Origin: Octopus vulgaris
Taxonomy: Eukaryota
Direction of reading: 5' to 3'
NCBI GenBank assembly: GCA_951406725.2
Contig: OX597815.1
Coordinates: 154,566,001-154,630,000 of the forward strand
Length of the DNA: 64,000 nucleotides
Positions 5,173-64,000 of this stretch are shown here, piece after piece. Each line of letters opens with the position of its first letter. Position 1 is the first letter of the stretch. The position numbers and the translations under genes are program-made. The notes beneath the pieces are model-generated. The model saw only the letters and a program-made list of their open reading frames with translations, was not told the DNA's origin and searched no databases.

Positions 5173-5392
5173 TTACTCTTTTACTCTTTTACTCTTTTAC
5201 TTGTTTCAGTCACTTGACTGCGGCCATGCTGGAGCATCGCCTTTAGTCGAGCAAATCGACCCCAGGACTTATTCTTTGTAAGCCCAGTACTTATTCTATC
5301 GGTTGCTTTTGCCGAACCACTAAGTGACGGTGACGTAAACACACCACCACCAGTTGTCAAGCAATGCTAGGGGGACAAACACAGACACACAA

Positions 5393-6659: not shown

Positions 6660-7058
6660 TGTGTGGTAAGTAGCTTGTTTACCAACCACATGGTTCCGGG
6701 TTCAGTCCCACTGCGTGGCACCTTGGGCAAGTGTCTTCTACTATAGCCTCGGGCCGACCAAAGCCTTGTGAGTGGATTCGGTATACGGAAACTGAAAGAA
6801 TCCCGTCGTATATATGTATATATATATGTGCGTGTGTGTGTTTGTGTGTCTGTGTTTGTCCCCCTAGCATTGCTTGACAACCGATGCTGGTGTGCTTATG
6901 TCCCCGTTACTTAGCGGTTCGGCCAAAGTGACCGATTGAATAAGTACTGGGCTTACGAAAGAATAAGTCCCGGGGTCGAGTTGCTAGATTAAAGGCGGTG
7001 CTCCAGCATGGCCGCAGTCAAATGACTGAAACAAGTAAAAGAGTAAAGAGTAAAGAGA
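6660..7058 (+). mobile_element. Near full-length tRNA-derived SINE family A
   Basis: A-box-like gtgtggtaag, B-box-like ggttcagtccc, ccttgggcaagt core, internal microsatellite, (agtaaag)n tail; many dispersed copies in the window. Confidence 0.85.
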
Positions 7059-7660
7059 GTTGTATCTATGTAGTATGTCTTTATTTTTGTATGCACTATA
7101 AATTAACCAAATATAAGCAAATTAACCAAATAGGCAACCTTGCAATTGCTGCGATAATTAACTCGTAACTGAATGGTAAATGTGCCTTATTATATACCTT
7201 GGACCTGTTACCTCATCGTTTTTTGTCAGGAGTTTCACCTCCAGCCGTTCGTTATGCCAGCCAACAACCATAAACTGCCACACCATTCCCCTGTCGTGGC
7301 CGTAAAGACGGAAAGTTGCCGATGTGTATTGTTGTTCATATTAGTGTATAAATAATTCATTTATTTCAAATACAATATAAATAAGATTATCTTAGTGTTA
7401 TTACATTAGAATTAAAAGTGAATGAATAGAAGTGAAACAATATTATAGTCTTATCAAAGGCGAAAGAATAAATAAAATTTAAACAAACATTATTGTACCG
7501 CCGAAAAAAAATCAGAAGGATCGTGTAGGGAGGGGTTTACGACCCTTTATATGGGCAAGGGCCAAAATCTGACCCTCTAGAACCTTCCCCAAGAAATTAA
7601 AAATTGTTCCTGCCAAATTTGGTACAGACTAAGCTAGCGGTTTCGCCGTACATAGAGGAA

Positions 7661-10249: not shown

Positions 10250-11510
10250 CCACAGACTTACCATTCAACAAAAGGGTATGTATCCCACCCCAAATTGACA
10301 GTGAAACAGAAGCAAAGATCTTAGCTAGAAATAGAGTCCAACACATCTTCGATCGGTTCAATTAATTCACTAAAAAACATTATGAGAAAGGGACCCACCA
10401 ACTCAGTTCATCTGTTGCCAAAGGTCTACAAAAACTGAAACAGCGAATTAGGAACAGGGTATTAGTGTGCCTTCCTACGGGCAAGTCTGGCATACTATCA
10501 GTAGTCAGACCACAGAACTATGTTCAGACCATGCAGCAACACATCAGTAGCATGAGAGATGTTGCACCACAGGAATATGAATGAGTGGAAAAACTCCTCA
10601 ATGCACATATGAGAATGTGGTGCAACATAATTCAACCTAAGAAATGGACTGCACACAATTTTCGAACATTTAACAATGATGCTCTTACACTAAACGGATT
10701 ATGCAAAGACCACAAACACTACATAAACCTTGTCATGGGGCCTCCAACCATACATTATGTGGTGCAACATAATCCAACTTAAGAAACGGACTGCACATAA
10801 TTTCCGAGCATTTAACAATGATGATCTTACACTATACAGGTTACTCAAAAACCACAAATAGTACAGAAATCTTGTCATGGGGCCCCCAACCAGAGCAGAT
10901 TGCGGAGCGAATATCTCTAGCAATTATAGGCTGTCCTACTTCCTCTCATAGGTATTACGACTCACATAGAAATGTCTGTGTGAGCACGGAAGATCTCAGT
11001 AAAATCAGTGCTTGCAATCACTTCAACGGCTGCACAGGTTCTGTAGTGGATGGTATGGATATGATTTCACTCTACCCATCGATAGACATAGATCTTGCTG
11101 TGGAGAAGTCAACACGAGGGAAATGAGCCTCCTCCGACAGTGACTACTTAGACGACCATGACCTCAGAAGACTCAGCCCCACCGGGTTACAGAGTGGAAA
11201 ACCACCCACTATCACTTCAGCAGTTAAGAAAAGCACCGCAGAGTGCTGGAGTAGATGGACCGTACCCACCCAAGACCCTGAGAACAACAATCAGGTGAAA
11301 GGTATTATTGCACATGCAATAGTGTCTAGTGTAAGAACCACCTTGAAGAACCACAGAGTAAAGTAACGAGAAACTATACATGTAAGTTCAAGGTGCAGCC
11401 ATTGGTGTCGGTATAGCTGGAGATGTGGCCGGCATCTTCATGACCTGGTGGGACAGAAAACTTACGCAATCCTTAGCAGAACAGTCCACAACTCTTCTAC
11501 TAAGGATTGC
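10250..11510 (+). mobile_element. Decayed Penelope-like element reverse transcriptase
   Basis: LPT(G)KSG, LNGLCKDHK (cf. LYGLPKIHK), DMISLYPSIDI, GAAIGVGIAGDVAGIFMTWWDRKL across several frames. Confidence 0.7.
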
Positions 11511-11704
11511 GTAAGTTTTCTACTTCATTTATTCAATCCGATTATTTCTATGTCTCCGGTAAAGGTTTTAGCTGCCAATTCTGTACAAGACATTGTAGAT
11601 CTTTAGCTGGACTAAAAAGTCCCATTCGATCACAGCACCAATAAGTTAAGCTTCGTGCAATGGCCATACTCGATAACGAGGGGCCAGCCATCATGTATTT
11701 ATCT

Positions 11705-11929
11705 ACGTGTTTGTGTTTGCGCCCCACTATCGCTTGACACCGATGTTGGTGCATTTACGTCCCCGTAACATAGCGGTTCGACAAAAGAGACAGATAGAAT
11801 AAGTACTAGGCTTACAAGGAATAAATCCTGGGGTCGATTCTTTCGACTAAAGGCGGTGCTCCAGCATAGTCTCAGTCAAATGACAAGCAAGTACAAGAAT
11901 AAAGGAATATAAGTATATATATATGTATG

Positions 11930-11981
<52 letters not shown>

Positions 11982-12240
11982 TCAATGTGTGTGTGTCTTT
12001 GTATCTGTGCTTCTCCCCCAGTACCCCTTGGCAGCCGGTGTTGGTGTGTTTTCCAGCCCCGTAACTTAGCGGCTCGGCAAAAGACACTGACAGAATATGT
12101 ACTAGGCTTAACAAAATCATAAATGCTGGAGTCATTTCATTCGACTAAAATTGATTCAAGGCCGTGCTTCCAGGATGGCCGCAATCTAGAGACTGAAACA
12201 AATAAAAGATAAAAAGATAAAAGATAAAAGATAAAAAGAT
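11705..12240 (+). mobile_element. Two tandem 3' halves of SINE family A separated by (TA)n
   Basis: Repeated cttagcggttcggcaaaaga..agaataagtactaggctt..tgactgaaacaa blocks; (gataaaa)n tail. Confidence 0.75.
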
Positions 12241-16399: not shown

Positions 16400-17750
16400 T
16401 TTTAAAGATATTTTGATTGACGTCTACTATTCCGTAAAGTGTTTTTTAAATCAGATTTTACACTTAGGCGCTTTGTAGGAGTATAATTAAGTTCGGTTTT
16501 ATGGCGTGAAAAATGTTGGTTATTCCAGCACTGTATGGTTAACAAACGGAATCGTGTTTTCATTAACTTTTTCCTTGGGTGTCCATAGATGGGTGATTTC
16601 AGTTTCATCGCCGTTTTAATTTCCTCATTAATTAATCCTAAGGGGTATTTCTGCATAGGAAAAAGACCTTTGAGTTCGTTGAGACGTATTTTGGGGGTCA
16701 CTAATAGCACACATGCGTCTTTCCAGGCTGCATGGGATGATTCTTTTGATGTGTGATGAGTAGAAATTTAAATACTGGTGTGTGTCACTTATTTTGTAAA
16801 ATATATCTGTTGTGACTGTGTAGCTCTGTATTTTTAGGTGGATATCCAGGAAAGGTAATTCATTGCAACTAGATTCTGTCGTGAATTTGATGGGTGAAAT
16901 GTGTTCAGTATATTGATAAATATACTTAGATCTTCATTCTATCTCTCTCAAAAAATGAAGCAATCATCAAGGAAGCGTTTCCACTTTTTTCCATAAATGT
17001 TTTAATTTTCCTTGACTTTTGACTGTACATTCACATCCACTGGGCTGCTGAACTTTATAACAGTGTAAGACTTTTGTTCTGTATCCCACAGAACAATATC
17101 AGATCTGTTATGTTTCCAACGAATTGATGATTTTATTGGGATGTTTCACCAGTATTCTTTGTTTTTAAAGGTGTGAGTACTTGTTGGTGTTGGTATGCCT
17201 TTGATGTATTAGTCAGGACAGTCTTTCCTGTGGATAGCATTTTAGATAGATTTTTACGACAATATCATGCCTTAAGGAGGGGTGATAACTCGAAGACATT
17301 TTAGGGCAGTTGTTGATGATTTGGGTGATATCTTTTCGCACTGGTATAGCAGAGCCAACATTATTATCACAATATGGAGATCTGGTGGTATCTGTGTTCC
17401 TCTTGTTGATTTGGCAGTTATCTCCTGTTCCAGGATAGTGAAGGCATATCCTTATAGTAAGGATGTAATGTATCTATCACAGATCCAGGAGAGGCTACTC
17501 TACATGTAAATTCTATTATTGCCCTCTAGCTTACGGGATATGTACTCATGTACTGTGTTTTGTTGGTATGATGTCTGCTTCTTCCCCAAACTTCTGTTTA
17601 GGTAGGTGAATCCAACTTTGTTTGTGTCACATGACAGAGTTGTATTCTCTGAATAGTTGCACAGTAGATTTTCTCCAACTCTGAAGATGCTGCTCTCACT
17701 TTTGAGTGTGCATAGAATATATTCCTTTTTTTACTGCCCAGCAGGTGTTG
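16400..17750 (-). mobile_element. Decayed Penelope-like element RT/thumb
   Basis: Minus strand WKRFLDDCFIF, FLDIHL..TDIFYK..DTHQYLNF, KYPLGLINEEI; same family as 27305-28260. Confidence 0.75.
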
Positions 17751-17808
17751 CTTCAGTGATACAATACGACTGAGCCTCTACCGCCATACTATCCGTGTCA
17801 CAGTTAAT

Positions 17809-18125
17809 GTGGACATGATATTTGGAGTGGTCAGTAGTGATGGCGACGTTATGCCTCCATTCATCTTCTCACACGGCCTCAGATTCAACACGGAGGCCTA
17901 CATCAAGTGCTTGGAAGTGATAGTGCTGCCCTGGTTCCAGAGAGTGGCTGCTGGAAGACCCTGTGTCTGGCAACAGGACTCTGCACCGTGTCACACAAGC
18001 AGAAGAACACAGTCATGGATGTCAGGCAATTTCCGCAACCACATCACCCCTAACATCTGGTCATTTAACTCCTCTGACAGCAACCCCCTTTATTATTGTG
18101 TGTGGGCCGAAATTGAGCGAGAGAA
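17809..18125 (+). mobile_element. Tc1/mariner-superfamily (maT/DD37D-like) transposase fragment
   Basis: FGVVSSDGDVMPPFIF..NTEAYIKCLE..WQQDSAPCHTSRRTQSW..W..NSSDSNPLYYCVW. Confidence 0.8.
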
Positions 18126-19727
18126 CGCTGCTGCGCGTAAGTAGATTTGTCAGTCAGGTCCGACGACCCCCACCAGACAGTTCGATCGGTGGTAGCGACG
18201 AGTGGTGTGTACAAGAGGCAGAGACATGATCATCGACATGAGCTGATGACCCGCATCTACCGGTAATTACTCGTTCATGACGTTGTTTCCAGTCCCCGGT
18301 ACCTATCACAGGCCGCGGTTTAGAGGTTTTCCGGCCTCATAATATTTATAAAGTAGTATGTTGTGAGGTTTATGGTTTTCCTGGCGGCATTGTCGAGAAA
18401 ACTGAAACAAAACGAATAGAATCATGAATTGTAGTCTCATTTCTGACTCGGCTTGCCGTATTTTTAATTCTCGTTATCTCATTCAATAATAAATAAAGTA
18501 CTGATGTCTTTTATAATTAATGTTTTATCAGAATATGCAATTTGTTTTAACTTATTTAGAAAGATATCACATCTTGCATTAATTAAAAAAAGAAACTAAA
18601 TGATTATTTCATTGTAATGTTTCTCCGTTTAAATGAAGCAGGACAATTACTCCAATGAGCGTAAGAATAAATGGTGTTTAGTTCAAAATAGTTGCCTCTT
18701 AGACGCCACTCGACATTACATACGTCACGCTTTCTGGTCCTTCGTAGACAGATGATAAAGCTTGTTTTCATCAGTGGCCAAATCAATAATTGTAAAATAT
18801 GATATAGCTCACTTCACAATAATATATCTGAAATCTCAATATTAATGGAAAACAATGTATATCTTTTTAGGAAACCAGCATATAGTCTATTCAAATCATG
18901 AAAAAACGCTGTTCAATTGGCAAAGATTCAAAATATCGAACCCGATTTAACATCACTGAAATCTTAATATCTATTAGGATATATTTCTACCAAGCATCAG
19001 TGTACAGCTAAAAGCCAAAAACATAATTCTTCAGAACCTTCTGGCCGAATTACATCGATGCAATATCAAAGGGTACTGCAAACGAGGCGAGTAAAATGTG
19101 TGTATCTTAGCTAAATAATTGACAAACCGAAACAAAACGCTCAAATTCATGGAGAAGAGTGGTTAGCAAATCGGGAATAACTTCAACGAGAGTCATATTA
19201 GATCGATATGACAATTTACTAGTTTACATCATGATATTTTTATACGACAATCGCATCCTGAGATATAGAGGGATAAATTTATATATTACAATATAACGCT
19301 TGTTGATGTATCCATCGATAACACTACAATATCGATACATTCTGTGAGCATTAAAAATAATTGACGAGATAGTGACACATGATAATGCTACCGAAAAACT
19401 ACCTCGCATTTTGCTGTTCTAAATTTTTATTGATATGGAAGTTTATATATTTACATATAAGCACACTTTGGTCGGAAAATAAATGGTTTCAGATTCCATC
19501 CAGCTACCTAGGTACATAATATCTTGAGCAAAGACGTATTCTATAGCTGCAAGCTGACCAATGCCTTGTGACTGAAACTGTCAGACGGAAATTGTGTGGG
19601 AGACTATTGATTGCGTGTTTGTCTCTCTCTCTCTCCACACACTCTCATAGGTAAACAGATAGACATGTAGACATACATACACATTTGTCGGTAATTGAGC
19701 CATCCTGCGTTCCTTTATTTTAAATAT

Positions 19728-20664: not shown

Positions 20665-20765
20665 GCAAGATGGCGATCTGTCAGAATCGTTACTAAGCCG
20701 GGCAGAATGCTTAGCGGCATTTCATCCATTTTTATGTTTTGAATTCAAATTCCGCCGAGGTCAAC
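20665..20765 (+). mobile_element. Truncated SINE family C head
   Basis: Matches 46624-46836 up to ttccgccgaggtcaact, then joins the LINE directly. Confidence 0.65.
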
Positions 20766-22870
20766 TATTTTCGTATTTTTCTGTCAAGATTACATATTTC
20801 AGCAATTGACCAGTTAACGATATTGAAACTGTAAGTCACGACTGGTATGGCTAATGCATTGATCGCTTCGATCCTGTTTCTCGCATTCAGCTCTGTCTTG
20901 AGTATTGCTCTTACTCTGCGATAACATTCTCTCCTGATCCTTTCCTTCATCTCTGAATGCCTTATTCCGTCTCCTTCAATTACCCCTAGATACTTGTAGT
21001 TCTCCGCTGGGTCTAATTCTTTTATGACATTCTGCTGGTCAAGGTTAACGTTAGATGTTTCTGTCATTTTTCCTTTGATAAAGGTAGCTTTTGCACACTT
21101 ATCGAGGCCAAATTGCATTCTGATGTCATCACTGAATTGTTTGACAATCGCTAGTAAGCCCTTGAGTTGTTGGTCATTTTTTGCAAAGAGCTTTAAATCA
21201 TCCATGTAAATGAGATGATTTATATTTTTATCAGACATTTTATATCCGTACTGCGCGTCATTGAGCAGTTTTGAGAGAGGTATTAAGGCTAAACAGAAGA
21301 GGAGTGGTGATAGTGAGTCACTCTGGAAAATGCCACATGGAACTTTTACATCACCAGCATTTAGAGATTCATTGTCACTGTTCAAAGTTAGTGTGGTTCT
21401 CCATGATCTCATACTTACAGACAGAAAGTTTCGCAGAGTAGGTGGTATCTTATACATTTCTAGGCATTTCTTAATCCAGCTATATGGTAGGCTATCAAAT
21501 GCCTTTTTATAGTCTATCCAGGCTATTGATAAGTTTTTGGGTCGTTTGTGACAATCTTGTAAGATCATCTTATTGATGAGTAGTTGATCTTTACAACCGT
21601 AGGATCCACATTTACATCCTTTCTGTTCATTAGGGAATATGCTGCTGTCTGTCAAAAAACTATAGGTATATTCCGTCTGGACAGATGTTAGTGTTTTATA
21701 CATAGTTGTTAAGCAGGTTATGGGTCTATAGTTTTTTGGTTCATTTGTTTCTTCACTTTTTGGAAGCAGGAATGTTAACCCATTTACTAGCCAAGGAGGC
21801 ATCCTACTAGGGTGTTGCAAAACATCATTGTAAAGTTCTGTTAGCAGTTCATGGCTCTCTGGGAAGGCATTCAACCAAAAGTTAGGGATTTTATCCTTTC
21901 CTGGAGACTTCCACTTGCTTGACCTCCTGAGAGCAGATCTTATATCTTCTACCTTGACACCCTCCCACTTTTGCTCTTCTAAGGAGTCCAGTTCTTTAGA
22001 TATTCTATCATTCCAGGGGGCCTTTTCGCTGTGTGATTTTTCTTCTTCCCAAAGTTTATTCCAAAATCCCTGCACTTCTTCTTTTGATGCTACAGACTTT
22101 ACAGTAACTGGTGTTTTTCCTATCTTCCTGTAAAAATTTTTGGGGTTATTTTTGAACATGTTGTTGTCCCTGAAGAATCTAACATGCTTTTCATACCTCG
22201 CTATGCGGGCAGCTTTAGCAGATACCTTTTGCTTGATGGTTTCTATGGTGGCATCAATATCAAGTATAGTTTTCATATTATATTTTTTCATTAGTTTTTG
22301 GGTTTTTGTAGGTTTGGTAGTCTTATGAACCTTAAGGTTTTTCAAATATTCAATGTCAGATCTAAATAGTTTAATTTGTTGTTGCAAACGCTCTTGCCAA
22401 GAAGGCTTTTTGTGGAAATGTTGCCGTTTTCTAATCTTTTCACCACATAGGATCGTTGAGATTTTCGCGGATGCATAGTATAGGTGGTTGAGATCTGTGA
22501 TATCAACATCATTAGCTGAAATTATATCCTTAAGTGCAAGCCGGGTTTTACCAATTATTTTCATGTTTTGGTTAGAGTTGCGGATTTTAGGTAGTGTATC
22601 ACGTTCATCCATACTGGTTTCTTTAATTTTCAGCCATTCAATCATGATTTGACTTTTTAGCTCATGTAGTTCTGTCGGGTCAACATTTGTGTGACTTTCT
22701 TCATCTATTTGATGTTCATCTGTCTTAGTGTTTATATTTGGTTCAGGGAGTATTTCACTTTGCCTATCACTTATACCAACTCTTTCAATCCTTACTTCGT
22801 TTTTATCAGCTCTGGGCTGGTCTATAATTATTTCCTCTGTATTATCTTCTTTAGCTGCAGCTTCGTTCAT
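20765..22870 (-). CDS. Non-LTR retrotransposon reverse transcriptase (R4/Dong clade), 701-aa open frame lacking the C-terminal endonuclease
   Basis: KSPGKDKIPNFWL, NYRPITCLTTMYK, EQKGC, IDYKKAFDS, GIFQSDSLSPLLF, YMDDLKLF, FGLDKC, YKYLG. Confidence 0.9.
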   Translation of the reverse strand: MNEAAAKEDNTEEIIIDQPRADKNEVRIERVGISDRQSEILPEPNINTKTDEHQIDEESHTNVDPTELHELKSQIMIEWLKIKETSMDERDTLPKIRNSNQNMKIIGKTRLALKDIISANDVDITDLNHLYYASAKISTILCGEKIRKRQHFHKKPSWQERLQQQIKLFRSDIEYLKNLKVHKTTKPTKTQKLMKKYNMKTILDIDATIETIKQKVSAKAARIARYEKHVRFFRDNNMFKNNPKNFYRKIGKTPVTVKSVASKEEVQGFWNKLWEEEKSHSEKAPWNDRISKELDSLEEQKWEGVKVEDIRSALRRSSKWKSPGKDKIPNFWLNAFPESHELLTELYNDVLQHPSRMPPWLVNGLTFLLPKSEETNEPKNYRPITCLTTMYKTLTSVQTEYTYSFLTDSSIFPNEQKGCKCGSYGCKDQLLINKMILQDCHKRPKNLSIAWIDYKKAFDSLPYSWIKKCLEMYKIPPTLRNFLSVSMRSWRTTLTLNSDNESLNAGDVKVPCGIFQSDSLSPLLFCLALIPLSKLLNDAQYGYKMSDKNINHLIYMDDLKLFAKNDQQLKGLLAIVKQFSDDIRMQFGLDKCAKATFIKGKMTETSNVNLDQQNVIKELDPAENYKYLGVIEGDGIRHSEMKERIRRECYRRVRAILKTELNARNRIEAINALAIPVVTYSFNIVNWSIAEICNLDRKIRK

Positions 22871-23430
22871 TCTATCCGTTACTGCTTGTCTAACTTGATC
22901 AATCTCTACTTCAGTCAGTAAATTTTTTTATAATGTTTCTTCTGACGTTGGCAAGTTTGTTACTGTCTATGTAGGGTCTTACTTCAGGGTGTTTCTGTCT
23001 CCACTTTATGTAGGTTTGTATAGTGTTCGATTAATCTGTGGGGAAATATATGGCATGGTAGAAGGCCGCAAGAACTTCTTTATTATCTTCCCTAGTCCAT
23101 TTTTCCTTTATTTCTTTTGAGTGTTTGGTGACGAGCATGGATGGCCATCTGTTGGAATATTCCAGTTGCGGGGTACGTCCAGCTCTTGTGTGGTTCAATT
23201 TTCGGTTACGTGGTCTTTTGTAGTCCGCTCGCCGACCATCGCTGATTGTAGGTTGTTTTGTTGACATTGAAGCATGACGAGCTTCGACTCTTACATTAAG
23301 AGACGGATCTGTCAGTTTAGGATTCTCTGCACGTAAACATTGTTCGTAGCGAAGCTTCTTAAGGCTAGCAGATCTGTATTCGTCTGTATTTTTTTGTTGA
23401 TAGTTTTATCTCCGGGCATAGTTTTCCCTT
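20765..23430 (-). mobile_element. R4/Dong-clade LINE, 5' two-thirds (N-terminal Myb-like region and complete RT domain), 3'-truncated
   Basis: N-terminal ORF 23031-23267 (KWTREDNKEVLAAFY) continues past one stop and a frameshift into the 701-aa RT ORF. Confidence 0.9.
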
Positions 23431-25059: not shown

Positions 25060-25712
25060 CGCGTAGCATTTTTATAGAGAATCCATTTCTCATCACCAGT
25101 CACTATTCGGTTCACAAAATGTTTATTCGTGAGACGTGACAGCAAAGAAAAATACTCATTCACTCCCTGCGTCCGATTAGACTCGGCAAGTTTCTGAGGA
25201 AGCTATTGCCCAAATTGTTGACATTTTCGATGGCACGCATGTCGATGAATGGTTGAATGATCAAATCCAAGTTTCTCTGCAAGTTGGTCAACAGTTATGA
25301 TGGGATTTTGGTCCACTAGAGTTTGCATGACGTCCTCGTCGAGCTCTACAGATCTTCTTGGACGGGGCTCGTCTTCTAGGCTGTAGTTTCCGACTCGCAA
25401 TTTCTGGTACCATCGTCGACACTGGCTTACGCTATATACTGCATTGATATTCCTTGCACTTTCCGTTGTATAGTTACCGTTATTGAAATCATAAAGAAAA
25501 ATATGCCGAATAGGCACCTCTGTCATTTCCATCATTGCTTGAAAAGTAACTGTTAAAAATGGAACTGCACTCTTCATAACTTGCACTAAGAATAAAAACA
25601 AGGTAAAGTTACCTGCTTTTATAACAAGTTGATGCAAGCAGTTTGTCTCGTCCCTCTCCGACTTTCAGTTCATGTAATTGAAAAGTCCGCATAATTTATG
25701 AGATGATCCAAT
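25060..25712 (-). mobile_element. mariner (Mos1-like) transposon 5' half with one TIR
   Basis: TIR-like tattggatcatctcataaattatgcgg on minus; IRHIFLYDF..ARNINAVY..RWYQKLRVGNYSLEDEPRPRR..LAEKLG..STIHRH; RIVTGDEKWI near 25085-25110. Confidence 0.85.
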
Positions 25713-26444: not shown

Positions 26445-28734
<2,290 letters not shown>

Positions 28735-28798
28735 TATATCAATTTGTGTGTTCCTTATCAAACTTCTACATACGTATATATTTATATATATATATATA

Positions 28799-28955
28799 TG
28801 TAGGTCCCGGGTTGAGTCGGGGTTAACCACAGTAAATAAGGTACTGAATACATAGCAGAGTAAATTAATTTATTTTATAGAAGGAGCTTCTACAGGACTA
28901 GAACTGTTTCATTCAAATGAAACAGTTCTAGTCCTGTAGAAGCTCCTTCTATAAA

Positions 28956-28961
<6 letters not shown>
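28799..28961 (-). mobile_element. Miniature fold-back element: 69-nt tail plus perfect 46-bp inverted repeat, flanked by (TA)n
   Basis: Arms 28868-28913 and 28916-28961, 2-nt loop; nearly identical to the terminus at 56611-56726. Confidence 0.9.
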
Positions 28962-33863: not shown

Positions 33864-34180
33864 TACCAGGCAGTGGATCTCATAAGCTTCTGATCCTAAC
33901 TGATTCGAAGTGTTATCATTTATATGTTTTGTTTTGAGGGAAAAGATGGGCTACAGTAAATATTCTGCTGAATACCGCAGATTTGCTTGCCACTTGGATG
34001 ACCATAACCAGTTGAACATGTCCCATAATAGCTGAAGATATGTGCATCTCTGAGCAGTATCATAGCCATGGATTGAGAGGGATTCTTTGAGGATTGAATA
34101 ATTCACCTCTGCAAATATAGGTGTTTCAGTCATCATGCTTAAACAACCCTTATTCAGTGAAACTTTGAGCGGGATGGGAT
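33864..34180 (+). repeat. Partial diverged copy of the 555-bp unclassified element
   Basis: taccaggcagtgg..agcttctgatcctaactgatt..aaagatgggctacag.. matches 58440-58994. Confidence 0.8.
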
Positions 34181-34780: not shown

Positions 34781-35542
34781 CAGAGGGTGCGATGAATACA
34801 CTGTCGTCTAAATTATGCAAAAAATGAAAATAACAGTGACATCTTTTAACGGATGTATTTACCAAAATTACATAAAAATATCTTGAAATACTAAGTAGTA
34901 AATTTATTCAATAAAATCGCTACCTCCAGTTCATATTCGGTGTTACAAGTTATGCGATCCACGTATAATAACTAAGGGTGTTACAATCTAGGGTGTTAGG
35001 TGGCCAGATATTAGGGGTGATGTGGTGGCAGAAATTGTTTGACAGCTATGAATGGGTTCTCTCCTATGTGTGGTATGGTGCAGAGGTCTGTCACAAGACA
35101 TAGGGTCTTCCAATAGCCACCCTCTTCAGCCAGGGCAGCATTATCTCCTCCAGGCACTTGATGTATGCTTTGTGTCGAGTCTGAAGCTGTGTGAGAAGAT
35201 GAATGGAAACATAGCGTCGCCATCACAATTGATGACTCTAAACACCATGATGTTGACTTGATGTCTTGATTTTTATTACTCTCGGTACATGTCCTAAGAT
35301 TGCACATGTCATGAGACTGACACCCATTCATTCTATGATCGTATTGGACCTTCTGACTCAAATGCCAAGTAGTACAGCATGTCATTTCTAAATTTCTGGC
35401 AGAGTGAATTGCGTGATTGTGCTGTTTTTCTCACAGACAGTACCCAACTGACCATACTATACTGTGTAGTCAACAAAATCAGAAGAAAATGTGCATGCGC
35501 GAAATTAAAGATATACAATGGCGCCTATTTACCCATTGCACA

Positions 35543-35596: not shown

Positions 35597-36023
35597 TCAT
35601 GTAATATTCTGGTTCAAATGCAGCCGGGGTCGATTTGGCTGTCAACCTTTCGATAAGATAACTACCTGTTTAACACTAAGGTCTATGTGATAGACATTCG
35701 CGCTGTACAGAGATTCTTGGCCATGAGCGAAAAACTTGCAACCACCCAACACGCAACACACACACAAACACACACACACAGACGCACCTATATTATATAC
35801 ATATACCTATCAACAAATGCGCGTACAGTACGTATATATTATATATATATATATATGATATATATATATAGATATATAGATATATATATATACACACACA
35901 TATATATTCCTATATCGATATACATGTATTATGTATGTACGTACGTGTGCATATATATATATATATATATATGGGAGAGTATTGTAGTTCGCTTGTAGTA
36001 TTGTGTATTGTTTGTAATTAAAA

Positions 36024-36172
36024 GTTTTGAATGGAACAACAATACACTATTACAGACAATGGGCTATATACCTGTTGTAATTTAGTTATCCATAGTTTGT
36101 ATGGATGACTAAAATACAACAGGTAAATAGCCCATTGTCTGTATTATAGTGAGTTTTAATACCATTCAAAAC
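36024..36172. repeat. ~150-bp imperfect palindrome (hairpin or MITE-like)
   Basis: tacagacaatgggctatatacctgttgtaatttagttatccata-gtttg-tatggatgactaaaatacaacaggtaaatagcccattgtctgta, closed by gttttgaatgg/ccattcaaaac. Confidence 0.85.
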
Positions 36173-36179
36173 GTTTTTT

Positions 36180-48830: not shown

Positions 48831-50227
48831 CACAATTTACATTTTATGATTTATGTGTTTAGTAACTTCAATTCAGTATGTTTTGTTGACTTTTAATTAT
48901 GTTTTCTAGTTCTTTAGGTGGTAATGTCTGTTTTGATTCTCATTTAATTTAATTAATCCATAGGTTTTCATAGCTGTAGGTCTGTCATTGTTTATTAAAT
49001 TTCATTTATTTTGGTGCAACGTGGGATGATTTATGTCGTTTACGTTGAAAGATTAATTTTTCGGAATGGTGGTATGTTATATTCTGGTCATATTTTCCAT
49101 AGTTAAGAGTAGTATATGTTTGGTAACTTGTTTAATTCTGTCATAAGTTTATTAATTTGAGTTTGCTACATTTATTTCGTTTCCGTTTAAAGTTCTTTAT
49201 AAGTCATTGTCCGTTTTGGTATATCTTTATTTTACTTAATTTAAGTTTAATACGTACATTTTCGTTACGGTCTATTCGTTTTGATTCTGTTATCGTTCAT
49301 TAAGTAGCAATGTCACCCGCACGTCCAACGTTGTTTGCTTAGTAAGCTTAAGCAGTTGTCAAAGCAAGAAACATATTGAGCTTATGCTTGGCCTCTCAAG
49401 CAGCATTTATACTTTTGGTACTGTTGACTCTATCATATTGAATGGTATTGCCCACATATCGAAACTATAATGATTTTCGATAAACTGCTGATGATGAAAC
49501 GTCTAGAAATTTTTATGTGTTTTTTATTTTGTTATTGTACATGTGTTTCATTGTAATCTTCATGTACCTTATATCCTCATCGTTTCAATGTCGTCCTCTG
49601 TAGTGATATTGGTTCTTGTTAGGTTCTTCTGTCATTTTAGATCGAACTGATACAATATCTTAGTTTACTCCGGAACTTAATTGATTACAGTGTAGTACTG
49701 ATAATCACCCTTTGTCGATTATGCATTGCTTGTAGTGTCTTAATATGCCTTAATTTGTGGAGATTTCATAAACTGCTTTTAAGGTTAGTGATTGCTTGCG
49801 TTCGTGTACTTCCATGCATGCGCACGTTTTAACATTTACAATATGTAGATCGTGTTTGATTGCAGGAATGAATCTGTTGGATTGTAAAGCTTTAATTAAG
49901 CAATTTAATTAAAGAATGACCTCATAATATCACTCTATGTGACATTAAATCTGATCCTAGTCTGTAACAGTGTTTTCGAAAGATATTTTCTCATAAAACA
50001 GTACACTTATTTTATTAAATGACTAAGTCAAACAGGAAGTTTAAATCACGTATCCCTGCATCTGAACCAGAAACCTCCAGTGAAAACTAACAACTGAGAA
50101 ATCTCTTCTAAAGACAAGCAGCGTCAGGCTGGGATTTCAAACCAGGGATTATATTGTGTCACTCCTGTTTCGTTTTCGGCGTACCTAAACATTAAGCCGT
50201 AGCAAGAGGGTTATCTTAGAAATATTC

Positions 50228-50385
50228 TTTTACTCTTTTACTTGTTTTAGTCATTTGACTGCGGCCATTCTAGAGTACCGCCTTTTAGTCGAGCAAATCG
50301 ACCCCAGGACTTATTCTTTGTAAGCCTAGTACTTATTCTATCGGTCTCTCTTGCCGTACCGCTAAGTTACGGGGACGTAAACACA
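50228..50385 (-). mobile_element. SINE family A, 3' fragment
   Basis: Matches 5173-5345. Confidence 0.8.
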
Positions 50386-51590
50386 CAAGAAATACCTGTT
50401 TTAAACTTTTTCCTACAGATAATAATTTCTTCCAGGGTATTATAAAGGAAATTTAAAGAAGAGAGAACAATAAACTCAATCGACTTTTTCAGTCTGGAAG
50501 GATGAAGGGTAAAGTTGACCTCGGCGGGGTTCGAAATCAGAACGTAATGAGCCGGAACAAAAACTGGATTTTATTTTTCAAGTTGCAATGAGAACCCTTC
50601 TCATTAGAAAATAGAAGATGAAGAGAGTAGAAAAGAAATCTATAGTCAAGATATATCCCGTAAATGACATATCGTAACAAAGAATGAGTTTATTTAATTT
50701 ATACCCAGCAATTGAGCTAAGCTACTTCCTTGATTTTGTTAATTATAATGATTTAATATAACGACAATAAACTTAATTTAGATATGAATTTCAATTACGT
50801 ATAGCCTGATGTTATCTTTCAAGTCTTATACTATTCTTCTGTTTTCGTAAAACACACAAATGATATAACAAAAAAAAAATTCCATATACATAGTAAATAA
50901 GAATAATTTTGAGCTATTTACATAAACACTGAAGAGGACTGAAGAACAATATATTGATAAAAATTAATTAATTATATTTGCAATATGTATTATGATAAAC
51001 AATGGAGATTAAGTAACGACAATCTGAAATAGTCTCAGATAAGTCCAAATGCACCACGGCATTACAGTAAATGTGGTTTATTATACAGTATGACATTATG
51101 TTTCAGAATAATAACAGGTGGTATGTTTGTGGTTTCGATGAAGGACCTTCTTCAAACAATGCATGAATGTATTTGAAAACTGCAAATATTGAATAGAGTG
51201 AAAAAATAACAATAGTTTCAAAACTTAGCAAAAGTATAGCAATTTTAAAGGGGAGATCCAAACGATGAGATCGTCCCCGGTGCTTAACTGGTACTTTGTC
51301 AATCTCAAAAGGGTGAAGGGAAAAGTTCTCGGCGATATTCGACCTCAGAACGTAAAGAGACGGAGGAAATTACGCTAAGCATTTTGTCTAGCGCGCTAAC
51401 GATTCAGCCAATTTAGTTATAGTAGTAGTGGTGGTGGTAATAGTAGTAGCAGTTCCTTTTATTAGACACAGAGGCATAGATGAGGGGGATGTCACAAAGA
51501 CAGACAATAATTTGTGCTGGGATTTACGTAAAGGATGGGGACTAAGAAATGGAAAAGTGGGTAAAATGCGATAATATATATATATGTATG

Positions 51591-51625
<35 letters not shown>

Positions 51626-51640
51626 TTATTATATAGAAGG

Positions 51641-51691
51641 AGCTTCTACAGGACTAGAACTGTTTCATTCAAGAGAAATCTTCAGGAAGCT
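51641..51691 (-). ncRNA. Minimal type-I hammerhead ribozyme, left-arm copy
   Basis: Exact reverse complement of 56589-56639. Confidence 0.8.
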
Positions 51692-52107
51692 AGTTAACAA
51701 GAATTGTATTGGCATTTATACATTTAGGCAGGTTTAAAGGGGTGGTGGTGGTGGACTTTTTTGGGGGTAGGCATAGCGCAAAATATCATACTTGGGGGAG
51801 TGGTCAAGGAGTCAGTGGTAAATTAGATAAAAGAATAAATAAAAGAATAAAAAAATAATAAAATAAAAAAATAAAAAAATTAAAAAATTAAAAAATAAAA
51901 TAAAAAAATAAAAAAATAAAAAATAAAAAAGAATAGAGTTTTAGGTAAATAAGGGGATTCTCACTTATACCTATACACACATGTATACATATATACACAC
52001 ACACACATATATACATACATACATACATACACACACACACATATACATATATATACACATACACATACATACACATATCTACACATACACATACATATAT
52101 ATATATC

Positions 52108-52141
<34 letters not shown>

Positions 52142-52783
52142 CATACACACACACATGCATACACATATACACACATGTATATATACACACACGACCACAC
52201 ATACATATACACACAGAAAAATATATATACATACACACACATACACATACACGCATACACACACATATCCACATACACACATGCACACACAACACCACAC
52301 ACAACACACAAGTCCCTATATACACATATATACACATACACACATATATATACATATATATACATATATATATATATACATATGTGTACCTATACATACC
52401 TACACATACACACATATATATACATACAAAAACAGACCCATTCCCTAATTTTAATTTTATTATCTTCATTTATTACTTTTGTTATCTTTGACCGCTGGTC
52501 ACAAGCATCTTGGCTATGACAGCAAGTCCATTAATCTTTCTACTTGAAAACAAGCACTCATTTACGCACGCACACTCATTAGCATGCACGCTCACTCATT
52601 CGTACCCTCATACACATACACGCACGCACGCGTTATATTCATACATACATACATCTACATACGTTCACGTATATACACATACGTACGCGTACCTACAGAT
52701 TCATGTCTACACCCTTAGAAGGCTAGTCTATACATATGCACCAATAAATATATATGCACACATACATATACACCTACATACAA

Positions 52784-52840
<57 letters not shown>

Positions 52841-53027
52841 AATATATATATACATATACACATACATACATACACATACACACATACACATACATACGTA
52901 TACATACATACATACATCCATACATCCATACATATATACACATACACACACCCACACGTATACATATACATACATATATATACGCGCATGCATACACACA
53001 CAAATACATACACATACACATATACAT

Positions 53028-53068
<41 letters not shown>

Positions 53069-53408
53069 TACATACATACACATACATACATATACATACA
53101 TACATATACAAATATACGCACACACATACATACACATATAAACATACACGCACATACACATGTACATGCGTACCCATACACACACACACACGCGCGCATC
53201 TATATATACACACAAGTACACACATGCGTAAAAGTATACATATATCTATGCTTACACATACACACACACACACGCGCCTCCTTATATTCATACTTACATG
53301 CATACTCAAAAAATAAGTAATAATAAATATTAATAAATATTAAGTATAAGTACGTGCAGTTACCTATTATACAGACGGATACATACATATAAACTTACAC
53401 ACACACAC

Positions 53409-53467
<59 letters not shown>

Positions 53468-53914
53468 TATACATATATATATATATATACATACCTACAC
53501 TTACGTACATATACATACACACATAGATAACTCTACGTGCCTACATATACATAAACACACGAGCGTACACGTATATGTACATATACACATACACATACAC
53601 ACACACATATACACATACATACACATACATACACACATATATACACACACACCCATACATATATATATATATATATATGTACATATATATATATATATAT
53701 ATATACATACACATATACACACACATATACTTGTGTGCAAACATACATACATACTCATACACGCACACACACTTACATATACATATATACACACACTTAC
53801 ACTCATATATACATACATATATACATACATACATACATATATGTATACATACACATATTCACACATACACATATATACATATATACACATACATATACAT
53901 TTACACATACATAC

Positions 53915-53956
<42 letters not shown>

Positions 53957-54290
53957 ATATACACACACAACTACATATACATACACATATATACCCACAC
54001 GTACACATATACACATATATACATATATACATACATATATATACACACATACACACACACACATATATATACATACATACACATACATATACATATATAT
54101 ACACACACATACACATACATATACATATATATACACACACATGTATGTGTGTGTATATATATGTATATGTATGTGTATGTGTATATATATATATATATGT
54201 GTGTATATATATGTATGTATATATGTATATATGTGTATATGTGTACGTGTGGGTATATATGTGTATGTATATGTATATGTGTGTGTATAT

Positions 54291-54344
<54 letters not shown>

Positions 54345-54543
54345 GTGTAAATGTATATGTATGTGTATATATGTATATATGTGTATGTGTGAATATGTGT
54401 ATGTATACTTATATGTATGTATGTATGTATATATGTATGTATATATATGTGTGTAAGTGTGTGTATATATGTATATGTAAGTGTGCGTGCGTGTATGAGT
54501 ATGTATGTATGTTTGCACACAAGTATATGTGTGTGTATATGTG

Positions 54544-54609
<66 letters not shown>

Positions 54610-54773
54610 GGTGTGTGTGTATATATGTGTGTATGTATGTGTATGTATATGTATATGTGTGTGTGTATGTGTATGTGTATATGTACATATACGTGTACGC
54701 TCGTGTGTTTATGTATATGTAGGCACGTAGAGTTATCTATGTGTGTATGTATATGTACATAAGTGTAGGTATG

Positions 54774-54834
<61 letters not shown>

Positions 54835-55209
54835 GTGTAAGTTTATATGTATGTATCCGTCTGTATAATAGGTAACTGCACGTACATATACTTAATATTT
54901 ATTAATATTTATTATTATTTATTTTTTGAGTATGCATGAATGAATAACTGCGCGTATATATATTTTATTATTTATTTTTTGAGTATGCATGTAAGTATGA
55001 ATATAAGGAGGCGCGTGTGTGTGTGTGTATGTGTAAGCATAGATATATGTATACTTTTACGCATGTGTGTACTTGTGTGTATATATGGATGCGCGCGTGT
55101 GTGTGTGTGTATGGGTACGCATGTACATGTGCATGTGCGTGTATGTGTATATGTGTATGTATGTGTGTGCGTATATTTGTATATGTATGTATATGTATGT
55201 ATGTGTATG

Positions 55210-55251
<42 letters not shown>

Positions 55252-55460
55252 CATATGTATATGTGTATGTGTATGTATTTGTGTGTGTATGCATGCGCGT
55301 ATATATATGTATGTATATGTATACGTGTGGGTGTGTGTATGTGTATATATGTATGTATGTATGGATGTATGGATGTATGTATGTATGTATACGTATGTAT
55401 GTGTATGTGTGTATGTGTATGTATGTATGTGTATATGTATATATATATATATATACATAC

Positions 55461-55494
<34 letters not shown>

Positions 55495-56588
55495 GTATGT
55501 ATTTGTATGTAGGTGTATATGTATGTGTGTATATATATTTATTGGTGCATATGTATAGACTAGCCTTCTAAGGGTGTAGACATGAATCTGTAGGTACGCG
55601 TACGTATGTGTATATACGTGAATGTATGTAGATGTATGTATGTATGAATATAACGCGTGCGTGCGTGTATGTGTATGAGGGTACGAATGAGTGAGCGTGC
55701 GTGCTAATGAGTGTGCGAGCGTGAATGAGTGCTTGTTTTCAAGTAGAAAGATTAATGGACTTGCTGTCATAGCCAAGATGCTTGTGACCAGCGGTCAAAG
55801 ATAACAAAAGTAATAAATGAAGATAATAAAATTAAAATTAGGGAATGGGTCTGTTTTTGTATGTATATATATGTGTGAATGTGTAGGTATGTATAGGTAC
55901 ACATATGTATATATATATATATGTATATATATGTATATATATGTGTGTATGTGTATATATGTGTATATAGGGACTTGTGTGTTGTGTGTGGTGTTGTGTG
56001 TGCATGTGTGTATGTGGATATGTGTGTGTATGCGTGTATGTGTATGTGTGTGTATGTATACATATATTTTCTGTGTGTATATGTATGTGTGGTCGTGTGT
56101 CTATATATACATGTGTGTATATGTGTATGCATGTGTGTGTGTCTATGTATATATATATATATGTATATATATAGATATATATATATGTATGTGTATGTGT
56201 AGATATGTGTATGTATGTGTATGTGTATATATATGTATATGTGTGTGTGTGTATGTATGTGTGTATGTATATGTGTGTGTGTGTGTGTATATATGTATAC
56301 ATGTGTGTATAGGTATAAGTGAGAATCCCCTTATTTACCTAAAACTCTATTCTTTTTTTATTTTTTTATTTTTTTATTTTTTTATTTTTTTATTTTATTT
56401 TTTTATTTTTTTATTTTATTATTTTTTTATTCTTTTATTTATTCTTTTATCTAATTTACCACTGACTCCTTGACCCCTCCCCCAAGTATGATATTTTGCG
56501 CTATGCCTACCCCGAAAAAAGTCCACCACCACCACCACCCCTTTAAACCTGCCTAAATGTATAAATGCCAATACAATTCTTGTTAACT

Positions 56589-56639
56589 AGCTTCCTGAAG
56601 ATTTCTCTTGAATGAAACAGTTCTAGTCCTGTAGAAGCT
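56589..56639 (+). ncRNA. Minimal type-I hammerhead ribozyme, right-arm copy
   Basis: agcttc-CTGAAGA-tttc tctt gaat-GAAA-cag ttctagtc ctg-TA-gaagct: 6-bp stem I, intact core, short stem II, stem III with CTAG palindrome in the loop, GUA cleavage triplet ending at 56633. Confidence 0.8.
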
Positions 56640-56919
56640 CCTTCTATATAATAAATTGATTTTACTCTGCTATGTATTGAGTACCTTATTTACTGTGGTT
56701 AACCCCGAATCAACCCGGGACCTACATATATATATATATATATATATAGCATATAATGATTGTGATATCATGGATATCACATAAAGGAATAAAAATTTCC
56801 AGAGTTAAGCAAGGGTACTCACAGATCCAGGATTACTCTGACAACCAAAGACATGAGCCCTCTTCCAATTGTTGCTCTTCAGTCTATAGGCTCTTGTTTA
56901 GAATGGGGCCATTTACTCT

Positions 56920-58146: not shown

Positions 58147-58437
<291 letters not shown>

Positions 58438-58439
58438 AA

Positions 58440-58994
58440 TGCCCTGATGCAGTACCAGGCAGTGGCTCTCATGGCTTCTGATCTTAACTGATTGGAAGTG
58501 TTATCATGTACATTGTTTTGTCTTGGTATAAAAGATGGGCTACAGCAAATATTCTGCTCAATACCACAGATTTGCTTGTCAGTTGTTTGACCATAACCAG
58601 TTGAGCATGTCCCTCAGTGTCTGACGATATGTGCATCTCTGATCACGAGCAGAAGTAGTGGGGGAGCATCATAGCCATGTGTTGAGAGGGATTCTTTGGG
58701 GTTTGAATAGTTCACCTCTGGAAACATGGGTGGTTCTTTCAACATCCTTAAACAACCCTTATTCAGGGACCGTTTGAGCGGGATGGGCTACTCAACTTGA
58801 AGAAAATTCTAACTGGGCCCCACCTGCAAGGTCATGTGCTGTTTATCTTGATATGAGATCACCATGTCGCGCCCATATGGTTGTGATGCATGTGCCTGGT
58901 GTACCTTTATCGGACGGGTAGTCATGATGGGTATATTGGGCTTCGTATATTTTACCCCAGTGTCACTTTGATGGCATGAACTGCTCTCTCACTC
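58440..58994 (+). repeat. 555-bp unclassified interspersed element, copy 1 (orientation inferred)
   Basis: tgccctgatgcagtaccagg...ctctctcactc followed by (AAT)n. Confidence 0.85.
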
Positions 58995-59006
58995 AATAAT
59001 AATAAT

Positions 59007-59063
<57 letters not shown>

Positions 59064-59618
59064 TGCCCTGATGCAGTACCAGGCAGTGGCTCTCGTGGCT
59101 TCTGATCCTAACTGATTGGAAGTGTTATCATGTACATTGTTTTGTCTTGGCATAAAAGATGGGCTACAGCAAATATTCTGCTCAATACCACAGATTTGCT
59201 CGTCAGTTGTTTGACCTTAACCAGTTAACAAAGTCCCTTAGTGGCTGACGATAGGCGCATCTCTGATCACAAGCAAAAGTAGTAGGGGAGCATCATAGCT
59301 ACGTGTTGAGAGGGATTGTTTGGGATTTGAATAATTCCCCTCTGGAAACATGGATGTTTTGTTCAACATCCTTAAACAACCTTTATTCAGGGACGTATTG
59401 CGAGGGACGGGTTACTCGATCATAAGAAAATTCTCACTGGGCACCACCTGCAAGGTCATGTGCTGTTTATCTTGATATGAAATCACCATGTCATGCACAG
59501 AAGGTTGTGATGCATGTGCCTAGTGTATCCTTATCAGACGGGTAGTCATGATGGGTATACTGGGTTTCGTATATTTTACCCCAGTTTCACTTTGATGGCA
59601 TGCACTGTTCTCTCACTC
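59064..59618 (+). repeat. 555-bp unclassified interspersed element, copy 2
   Basis: Collinear with copy 1, same ends, scattered substitutions. Confidence 0.85.
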
Positions 59619-62392: not shown

Positions 62393-64000
62393 TACTGGCG
62401 AAAATAAATTTAAGACCGATGATAAAAGTTCTATTTCTTACAAAATATTTTGTTACTAACTCCATACAAATTATTTTTATCTTTTACACCTTATGCAGAA
62501 TTTATTACGCTTTCGAACGATGCAGACAATAACTATTTTTTTACAACTTGAAGAATTCGAATGCTAAATTAATATAAACTTTTCAAGTTTACCGGCAAAA
62601 TTAGTTTAACACCGTATCATTATAATTTTATTTAAAGCTTAAGATGGTAGCAAAAAATGAGCAACAAGAACAAAATACATATTAGTAGTTTGTGCTGTAG
62701 CCTTTTTTCTTAATATCGGCTGAACAACGCCTCGGCATTGAATTCGCTAAGTGATTACAAAAGTCTATGGGAATGTTTTGCTATATATCATTGATATAAT
62801 CGAATAAATGTTTTAGATTAGATGTTTTTTTTTAGCATGAACTTTTTTGGAAACATAATTCCACAGGTTCTCGATCGGATTCAGGCCCAGGCTCTGGGGA
62901 GGCCATTCGATTACGTCAATTTTATGGTGATCAAAACAATTCCATAACCTTTTTGGCTTTGTGCACAGGACTATTGTCTTGCTAATAAATAGCCTCCAGA
63001 GGCATTTGGTGAGTCAAATATGGCACAACATTATCCTTTAGTATATACATATAACCTACACTATTTAGCTTTCCATCAACTTTAACTAGAGGGCCAACAC
63101 TAAAGCTACTAAATGCCGCCAACACTATCACAGTCCCTCCTCCGCTTGCGCCGTCGTTTTCATGTATTTCGGATGGAATTCCTTGGTTGGGCAACGTCTG
63201 ACGTATGTTTTACCATCTGATCAAAATATACAGAAGCGTGATTCGTCACTCCAAAGGACCCTGCACCAATCTTCGGCAGTCCATTGAGCATGGCTTTTTG
63301 CGAAATTAATGCGTTTGAGTCGATTTCTTTTGTATATTATTGGCTTTTTCCTAGCGATTCATCCATGCTCTCCAAATTCTCTCAAACGGTTGCGGATAGT
63401 TTGTGGTGTAAAAATAACATCGTTCTCGTTTACAAATGTCAACGGCTCTCAGCATTCGGTTGCCTTTCGAAAGTTGGTGGATTCGACTGTCCAACTACAC
63501 CGTTGTTTTTCTTGGGGCGCCAGTCCTTTGCCGATCTTCATATTGACCAGTCTCCGAGAATAACTTCCACGCTTGCATGCAAGCCATTTTACTGCACATT
63601 AGTTGCTTGCTGATGTTCGAAAAGGAAACTTTTTGCTGGTGGAGTAATACGATTTTTGCTCTCGTGATTGGACTGAGGCTACGTTGTTTTCCCATTATTA
63701 ATCAATTGTATAATAACGTTAAATTATAACACTATATAGTGCACTTAGTCTAGTTGTGTGACCATCCATTTTGGCAAACAAATTTGCGTACATATTACAT
63801 GATCTTAAACTAATTTGCCGGTAAATTTGAAACGTTTATATTAATTTAGCATTCGAATTCTTCAAGTTGTATAAAAATAGTTATTGTCTGCATCCCACAA
63901 AAGAGAAATAAATTCTGCATAAGGTGTAAAAGATAGAAATAATTTGTATGGAGTTAGTAATAAAAAATATGGTAACAAATAGATTTTTTATCATCGGTCT
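62393..64000 (-). mobile_element. Tc1-family transposon with long (~215-bp) TIRs and frameshifted transposase; right TIR runs off the window
   Basis: 62413-62608 is the reverse complement of 63803-64000; MGKQRSLSPITRAKIVLLHQQ..RTGAPRKTT, WCRVLWSDESRF, GPLVKVDGKLNS, QDNSPVH, EWPPQSPGLNPIENLW. Confidence 0.92.

Follow-up and report, generated by a model that had tools for sequence, protein, structure and literature searches.

A probable Penelope-like hammerhead motif in a foldback insertion of an Octopus vulgaris locus

Within the stretch of Octopus vulgaris DNA analysed here, referred to below as the window and 64,000 nt in length, positions 51624-56725 are occupied by a 5.1-kb foldback with a hammerhead motif near each of its two outer ends, and a second, far smaller insertion of the same family is found at 28800-28961 (Table 1). 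A search with nhmmer, together with a search allowing 3 mismatches, returned four arms of this family in the window and no more, and 0 matches to it were obtained in bacterial and archaeal genomes. A bacterial promoter scan was also tried and rejected: it gave fewer matches than shuffles, and its models are bacterial, the locus being eukaryotic.

Table 1. Features of the two foldback insertions, in positions of the window (“equivalent” positions are those of the long arm of the large insertion).
Feature	Position	Strand	Remarks
Long arm of foldback	54146..56725	+	About 2.2 kb rich in TA/TG microsatellite, then U-rich tract, hammerhead and tail
Short (inverted) arm	51624..54141	-	Ends at equivalent 56656, directly in (TA)n
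4-nt central spacer	54142..54145	.	In an alternative register the left arm is 28 nt longer
Probable pLTR / 3′ UTR, U-rich tract	56310..56588	+	Putative boundary
Type I hammerhead, long-arm copy	56589..56639	+	Predicted cut between 56633 and 56634
Loop III, 8 nt	56621..56628	+	Centred palindrome CUAG (56623-56626); would allow a strand-swapped dimer helix III
Predicted 8-bp hairpin	56631..56649	+	Covers the cut site and helix I's 3′ strand, in competition with the active fold
One-arm “tail”, 69 nt	56657..56725	+	Followed by (TA)n; tail concept from PMC8557442, PMC11167929
Identical hammerhead, short (inverted) arm copy	51641..51691	-	From arm comparison and descriptor
Second insertion, long arm	28800..28916	-	Equivalent 56725 (tail end) to 56608
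Second insertion, short arm	28917..28961	+	Equivalent 56612-56656, same short end

The hammerhead is built on a helix I of 6 bp (56589-94/56634-39), followed by the core CUGAAGA (56595-601), a helix II whose first pair, U56602·U56613, is continued by 3 bp (56603-05/56610-12) and a 4-nt loop, the GAAA of 56614-17, and a helix III of 4 bp (56617-20/56629-32) with an 8-nt loop, the cleavage triplet GUA placing the predicted cut after 56633. The core CUGANGA, GAAA, a NUH triplet, and the three helices, open at helix I, are those of a type I hammerhead, and the stems, core, first U-U pair, and triplet agree with the original prediction. It is likewise the case, as stated there, that the 51 nt of the plus strand are, letter for letter, the exact reverse complement of the copy in the other arm, with 0 differences.

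A descriptor formed by the core with helices I and III, in which helix II was not demanded, matched these 2 sites alone in the 64-kb window at all four stringencies. The controls were 200 dinucleotide shuffles made in 500-nt blocks, and these gave 0/200 matches when helix I had at least 5 bp and helix III at least 3, and 9/200 at the laxer setting of 4 and 2; a second, independent hammerhead pattern gave 0 matches in 100 shuffles. Rfam, in contrast, gave no support: no match reached the gathering score anywhere in the window, the 3 matches with E ≤ 10 in 56500-56730 included none to a hammerhead family, and the 150 of 247 matches listed over 51400-56900 were miRNA and snoRNA noise driven by microsatellites. 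A match to an Rfam hammerhead model is not a defining feature of the type I class. Left to fold freely, the 51-mer does no better than shuffles (z = 0.17), and for a comparison of the stems the window offers a single full-length sequence, in its two copies, plus a partial one that does not differ from it. Judged by its sequence, the motif at the two sites appears to be a real type I hammerhead, far above chance.

The arms that carry it are largely simple repeat, since TA/TG microsatellite makes up 72% of their dinucleotides. No credible ORF was found inside them, only low-complexity read-throughs, and an ORF with reverse transcriptase (RT) and GIY-YIG is absent from 51624-56725. The foldback is at most a non-autonomous or UTR-only derivative, and not an autonomous element. 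Both of its ends abut (TA)n, and (TA)n is also what a check for target-site duplications finds in the flanks. The short-arm end, 56656 (ambiguous over 54-56, where AT is common to element and target), lies 23 nt beyond the predicted cut, and the long-arm end 92 nt beyond it; the first distance had been given in the original prediction, together with the remark that cleavage alone does not set that end, and is reproduced here. The short-arm end (56655-56657) falls within ATT, a motif favored by the endonuclease of the anole Penelope-like element (PLE), which is likely chance in DNA so rich in AT. At the 54.1-kb junction the alternative register, offset by 28 nt, is due to a local duplication. 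A local duplication of 53 nt, at 54912-54965, is present in the right arm only and arose after the foldback had formed. Within the tail, 56663-56683 form a weak hairpin (-2.3 to -3.0 kcal/mol) with a two-base bulge on its 3′ side, which by eye resembles the 3′ end of Hydra-2_Amil (PMC8557442), and a hairpin of this type was not seen, also by eye, in three earlier-stopping ends or in Hydra-1_Crog as given in that source.

The second insertion is a 162-nt foldback, 30 times shorter than the large one, with the same two outer ends, (TA)n flanks, and a 4-nt spacer at 28913-28916; the (TA)n into which it is inserted is the one that follows the 3′ end of another PLE. Its inner ends lie inside helix/loop II, in such a way that the 5′ half of the hammerhead is missing and the cut site is spanned. 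In both insertions, then, the outer ends are 69 nt apart, the arms are head-to-head, the central spacer has 4 nt, and the center folds as a DNA hairpin with a 4-nt loop. At the position equivalent to 56649 the two arms of the second insertion have a base in common which differs from that of both arms of the large one, and thus each insertion would have had one template. All four arms run across 56633/56634, and no arm end, outer (0/4) or inner (0/4), coincides with the cut; therefore, the RNA copied into both insertions was uncut here. These same data bear on the idea that the foldback could be a chimera from sequencing or assembly, long palindromes being a known artefact of long reads: the arms differ at 62 places, including the 53-nt duplication, the flanks are unrelated, and the second locus repeats the end geometry with private variants, so that this explanation is extremely improbable.

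The PLE beside the second insertion (26553-28773) is degenerate and belongs to a different family; it consists of an RT remnant and a region with Cys-linker and GIY-YIG at 27280-28260 (+), whose product is 42-46% alike to two proteins, one of them with PF01541, and it has an inverted terminal repeat (26553-26800) and a one-sided tail of about 30 nt, the last four bases of which are the same as those of the main family's tail. By its linker motif we take it to be Neptune-like. The remnant at 27.3-28.3 kb was considered as a direct partner of the foldback family and rejected, its terminal repeat and the end of that family giving no more than a weak alignment. Its repeat also contains, at 26600-26640 (-) and 28640-28680 (+), a hammerhead-like half motif with GAAA and a helix I of 3 bp, in which the palindromic helix III is intact in the 26.6-kb copy and the 5′ core is non-canonical; this is possibly a U3-A8 variant, or a half-core behind a splice-acceptor-like tract.

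Other elements are scattered through the window. Further degenerate RT remnants occur at 16400-17300 (-) and 10900-11521 (+), the latter ending in a 67-nt palindrome (11455-11521), both presumably PLE-like from the look of their motifs. Non-LTR retrotransposon RT frames are found at 20765-22927 (-) and 1242-2416 (-), and the 720-aa frame has a Pfam RVT_1 match and 345 relatives at E ≤ 1e-50, the best 63% identical. Mariner-like transposase remnants lie at 25203-25664 (-), with an HTH_48 match, and at 17716-18144 (+) and 34959-35249 (-), which are inverted homologues of each other. A dispersed family of SINE-like type, 73-91% alike and, we assume, similar to the octopus SINEs, is represented at 129-185, 513-605, 5172-5374, 6860-7060, 11729-11913, 12027-12228, and 50223-50386. 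There are, in addition, a 157-nt imperfect palindrome adjoining (TA)n (36020-36176), TIR-like inverted repeats of about 200 nt and 91% alike (62413-62609 with 63805-64000), a tandem duplication of about 620 nt (58437-59618) related to 33864-34178, and, beside a 69-nt tandem repeat (6082-6525), a 148-aa frame (5740-6186, -) with no Pfam match, which we take to be a fragment of a Helitron Rep/helicase.

The identity of the two hammerheads could suggest that selection has kept a working ribozyme unchanged at the locus while the rest of the arms drifted, and the original prediction had indeed described the motif as identical while its neighbors had diverged. The arms, however, are about 98% alike throughout: of the 2427 nt aligned end to end, 2385 match and 42 are substituted, with 20 indels besides, and 831 of their 2464 windows of 51 nt are free of differences. 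The ribozyme lies in an identical run of 133 nt (56524-56656), and two longer runs, of 182 and 154 nt, occur elsewhere in the arms, which makes it the third longest. Eight non-microsatellite blocks, unique and picked by hand, with the ribozyme left out, hold 8 events in 752 nt, a rate at which 51 identical nt would arise by chance with P = 0.58; at the whole-arm rate, P = 0.27. The comparison with the 28.8-kb insertion, where 32 nt of the ribozyme show no difference and 86 nt of flank show 5, points in the direction of selection, as does the absence of differences between the arms, but is not significant either (Fisher P = 0.32). Furthermore, a read-through transcript of the locus would pair the motif with its perfect antisense (computed, -92.7 kcal/mol). 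Selection of this kind is thus hardly plausible: the identity carries no selection signal and is the background of a young foldback, the two copies being identical because the element was inserted as a young mirror-image pair, and, as it is expected at the background rate, it does not count as a sign of ribozyme activity.

As to what the motif could do as RNA, the 51-mer alone is predicted to form helix I with P = 0.93 and helix III with P = 0.53, with helix II mostly unformed (P = 0.06); the core is predicted to mispair with loop II, and the active fold to cost 2.5 kcal/mol. With the native flanks the predicted cost becomes 5.0-6.3 kcal/mol and helices I and III fall to 0.01 or less, mainly because of the hairpin that forms over the cut site. 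An equal penalty is reached by 14/200 and 5/100 shuffled 3′ flanks (5-7%), and by 28/200 and 19/100 when both flanks are shuffled (14-19%), all of these being mononucleotide shuffles, and so the modelled occlusion of the cut site by this hairpin is suggestive only. On the other hand, two copies are predicted to co-fold as a strand-swapped double hammerhead at -24.6 kcal/mol, vs 2 × -7.3 for the separate molecules, which upholds the view that the palindromic loop III is compatible with a dimer; the predicted palindrome duplex (-12.8 kcal/mol) is equalled by 105 of the 840 permutations of the loop.

An efficient monomeric ribozyme that cuts constitutively and defines the end for transposition, in the manner of retrozymes or R2, would be in keeping with the complete core, the 6-bp helix I that forms readily in the 51-mer, and a 4-bp helix III able to close alone. 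It would, nevertheless, have to be reconciled with arms that all cross the cut and never end at it, with helices I and III almost lost in the native flanks, with a window in which the unit is nowhere repeated in short tandem arrays, and with a loop II that has no purine for the usual loop-loop contact of hammerheads, so that it is very improbable. Any activity is probably weak and dependent on a dimer, which the modelling favors, or on protein. Here the two copies are on opposite strands and cannot form a dimer in cis; this, and the antisense pairing in read-through RNA, make local activity unlikely, and both copies are probably passengers.

Taking these features together, the motif is most likely the pLTR hammerhead of a Penelope-like retroelement, of the type found in the Hydra clade, a slow ribozyme in a foldback made by snap-back, a reading to which we would assign a probability of roughly three in four. 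PLE insertions are known for an inverted, 5′-truncated copy, a tail of 30-40 bp at one end, and the targeting of microsatellites (PMC8557442), and here a sense hammerhead near the 3′ end of a probable pLTR, with outer ends at distances of 23 and 92 nt, is accompanied by an inverted 5′-truncated copy and a one-sided tail in two insertions. The structure matches the published architecture except for the length of the tail (69 nt as against 30-40), and the association with PLEs that had been predicted is borne out by the truncated inverted copy, the tail, the (TA)n target, and the Hydra-clade shape. The latter two, (TA)n insertion and the usual hammerhead form save for a longer loop III, are what point to the Hydra clade. 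That clade is defined on protein, by RT/EN motifs (RWK, DKT, a CxCX5C linker, no CCHH) and phylogeny (PMC8557442), and since the element has no RT or EN sequence, the shape of the ribozyme and the target are all that indicates its clade; for this reason we say that it works like a Hydra-clade PLE, not that it is a member, and on balance we favor such an origin, with somewhat less confidence than the reading as a whole. It has to be set against this that U·U also occurs in PLEs of D. willistoni and in an axolotl retrozyme, that the 8-nt loop III (vs 1-3 nt) and the 69-nt tail are outside the published ranges, and that Rfam lends no support.

Could the element be something other than a PLE, that is, a foldback or MITE-like DNA element, or a retrozyme-like repeat, carrying a hammerhead by chance? 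The lack of coding capacity, the long inverted arms, and the silence of Rfam would be expected of such an element. However, the unequal arms and the one-sided tail are repeated in an insertion 30 times shorter and truncated on its inner side, and therefore 5′-truncated retrotransposition fits better than terminal inverted repeats, while retrozymes are head-to-tail repeats of 200-400 nt (PMC7229834) and have themselves been argued, in a preprint, to be derived from PLEs. An origin outside the PLEs is consequently quite improbable. No description of the family was found in the literature searched or in the supplement of PMC8557442, and the hammerhead and tail-end motifs gave 0 matches in the same supplement, where line breaks could hide one. 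The family is distinct from the octopus family Hydra-1_Obim, which has a different hammerhead. The consulted passages of the O. vulgaris repeat paper (PMC13282606) gives recently active Penelope families and makes no mention of hammerheads.

If we accept the Penelope-like reading, the insertions could have been formed as follows. A non-coding RNA, rich in microsatellite and with the hammerhead at its 3′ end, would be inserted into (TA)n by a PLE protein encoded elsewhere: the endonuclease would nick (TA)n, reverse transcription would start at the tail end of an RNA uncut at the hammerhead, and the cDNA would stop, fold back, and copy itself up to the inner end, which would then join the other end of the target. 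One template would in this way yield two near-identical arms and two identical hammerheads, and snap-back would account for inner ends that are equal at two very different lengths, 4-nt loops, and variants specific to an arm pair, with no need for an antisense RNA template. The two junctions on which it rests include one in ambiguous microsatellite; two coupled primings that stopped at the same place, or a later gene conversion between the arms, are possible instead. The ribozyme itself could be catalytically competent but slow, its cut site held as a monomer in the competing hairpin, and a second copy (in tandem pLTRs, via helix/loop III) or the PLE protein would be needed for folding, a dependence that has been reported for other PLE motifs; cleavage aided in this manner might, for example, release elements from tandem transcripts. 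In a read-through transcript of this locus, the sense copy would be enclosed within a duplex of 2.5 kb.

A more far-reaching proposal, which we regard as doubtful, would be that of a non-autonomous Hydra-clade derivative bearing kilobases of host-like microsatellite, which forms snap-back foldbacks with a fixed 4-nt loop and in which the hammerhead is a switch, off through the 3′ hairpin and on, through the palindromic loop III, only in tandem. The hairpin would be situated between the cut site and the inner of the two outer ends, and, by keeping the hammerhead off, would let the reverse transcriptase copy through. If this were so, each jump would double the microsatellite load and seed multi-kilobase dsRNA hairpins, and how the second strand is made in PLE transposition, an unsolved step, could be read in the genome from the junctions.

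Among known systems, the closest are the PLEs of the Hydra clade (Craig et al., 2021; PMC8557442), whose hammerheads are also type I and in the sense strand near the 3′ end, Hydra-1_aJap, Penelope-9_HM, Hydra-1_aMil, and Penelope-13_HM being the examples that we liken to the present one (File S2). In their table (25 families in 26 rows, counted by eye), helix II is closed by U·U in 14/25 families and helix III has 4 bp in 22/25, with the identical ACAG/CUGU in 4/25, all as here, and (TA)n is the target in 26 of the 27 families for which one is given. The 3-bp helix II is found in Penelope-9_HM; in Penelope-13_HM an inverted copy places one and the same hammerhead on either strand; and Hydra-1_Crog has, by eye, a U-rich 3′ UTR. 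In contrast, loop III has 1-3 nt in 25/25 families and 8 nt with a central palindrome here, and the present insertion, unlike those PLEs, has no ORF. The distance from the cut to the consensus end in 24 families, where consensus ends are curators' choices and Penelope-18 was left out as its row maps to a 5′ copy, is 30-48 nt in 10, 63-70 in 2, 88-153 in 11, and 355 in 1, to be compared with 23 and 92 here. The hammerhead adds one PLE case to the thousands described, and its unusual feature is the 8-nt loop III centered on a palindrome.

The motif had also been called minimal, a term that in its published sense does not apply. In the min-HHR of Cervera and de la Peña (2014; PMC4209133) helix III is absent or has 1-2 bp, and helix II is long, with a bulged base after A9 and then G10.1-C11.1, whereas here helix III has 4 bp and an 8-nt loop, and the short, U·U-closed helix II of 3 bp has neither the bulged base nor G10.1-C11.1. 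The likeness to min-HHR is in the pLTR location, the U-rich 5′ and AU-rich 3′ flanks, the palindromic element in helix/loop III through which dimers are formed (present here, at the chance level of 105/840 given above), and the low activity and dimer use to be expected. U·U closure is drawn in 2 of the 56 general PLE hammerheads of that work, from Hydra magnipapillata and D. willistoni, in an alignment whose 56 rows were taken from the text of a PDF, where the GAAA column is detached. Natural hammerheads with U10.1·U11.1 are known, and the pair is tolerated in cleavage (PMC3088659); in an axolotl U·U motif, the monomer cuts to 22% in 1 h and the dimer to a greater extent (PMC7229834). The present motif resembles this HHR_Amex2 in being non-coding, type I, with a helix II that starts with U·U, and, by prediction, better as a dimer. 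The retrozymes of the same source, however, are short head-to-tail repeats that give circRNA and keep the contacts between loops 1 and 2, and here the arms are head-to-head, each strand has a single sense copy, and the window holds no short tandem array of the unit.

With regard to insertion, the anole Poseidon element PAc (Frangieh et al., 2024; PMC11167929) has a hammerhead that cuts only with protein, uncut RNA as its main insertion substrate, two reverse-transcription start sites that bracket the tail, and AT-rich nicking. The present family is similar in the two defined ends that bracket a tail downstream of the hammerhead, the AT-rich target, and the insertion of uncut RNA, but in PAc the hammerhead overlaps the start of the ORF and the tail has 30-40 nt, as against 69 nt here, where the hammerhead is not followed by the start of an ORF, both ATGs near the hammerhead reaching stops within 5 codons. 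Two insertions with shared ends, 4-nt loops, and a crossed cut are, in this respect, a small natural test of the model of two ends and a tail, and on the role of PLE hammerheads both of them side with the uncut RNA as template. Finally, in Adineta vaga (Arkhipova et al., 2013; PMC3846280), palindromes at head-to-head junctions have been read as self-priming, and host or unrelated DNA has been captured beside pLTRs; Pen1, Pen2a, and Pen3a share with the present family the head-to-head repeats, the palindromic junctions, the one-sided tail, and the unrelated DNA beside the pLTR, although their inverted copy is mostly a short pLTR, whereas here the whole 2.5-kb cargo is mirrored.
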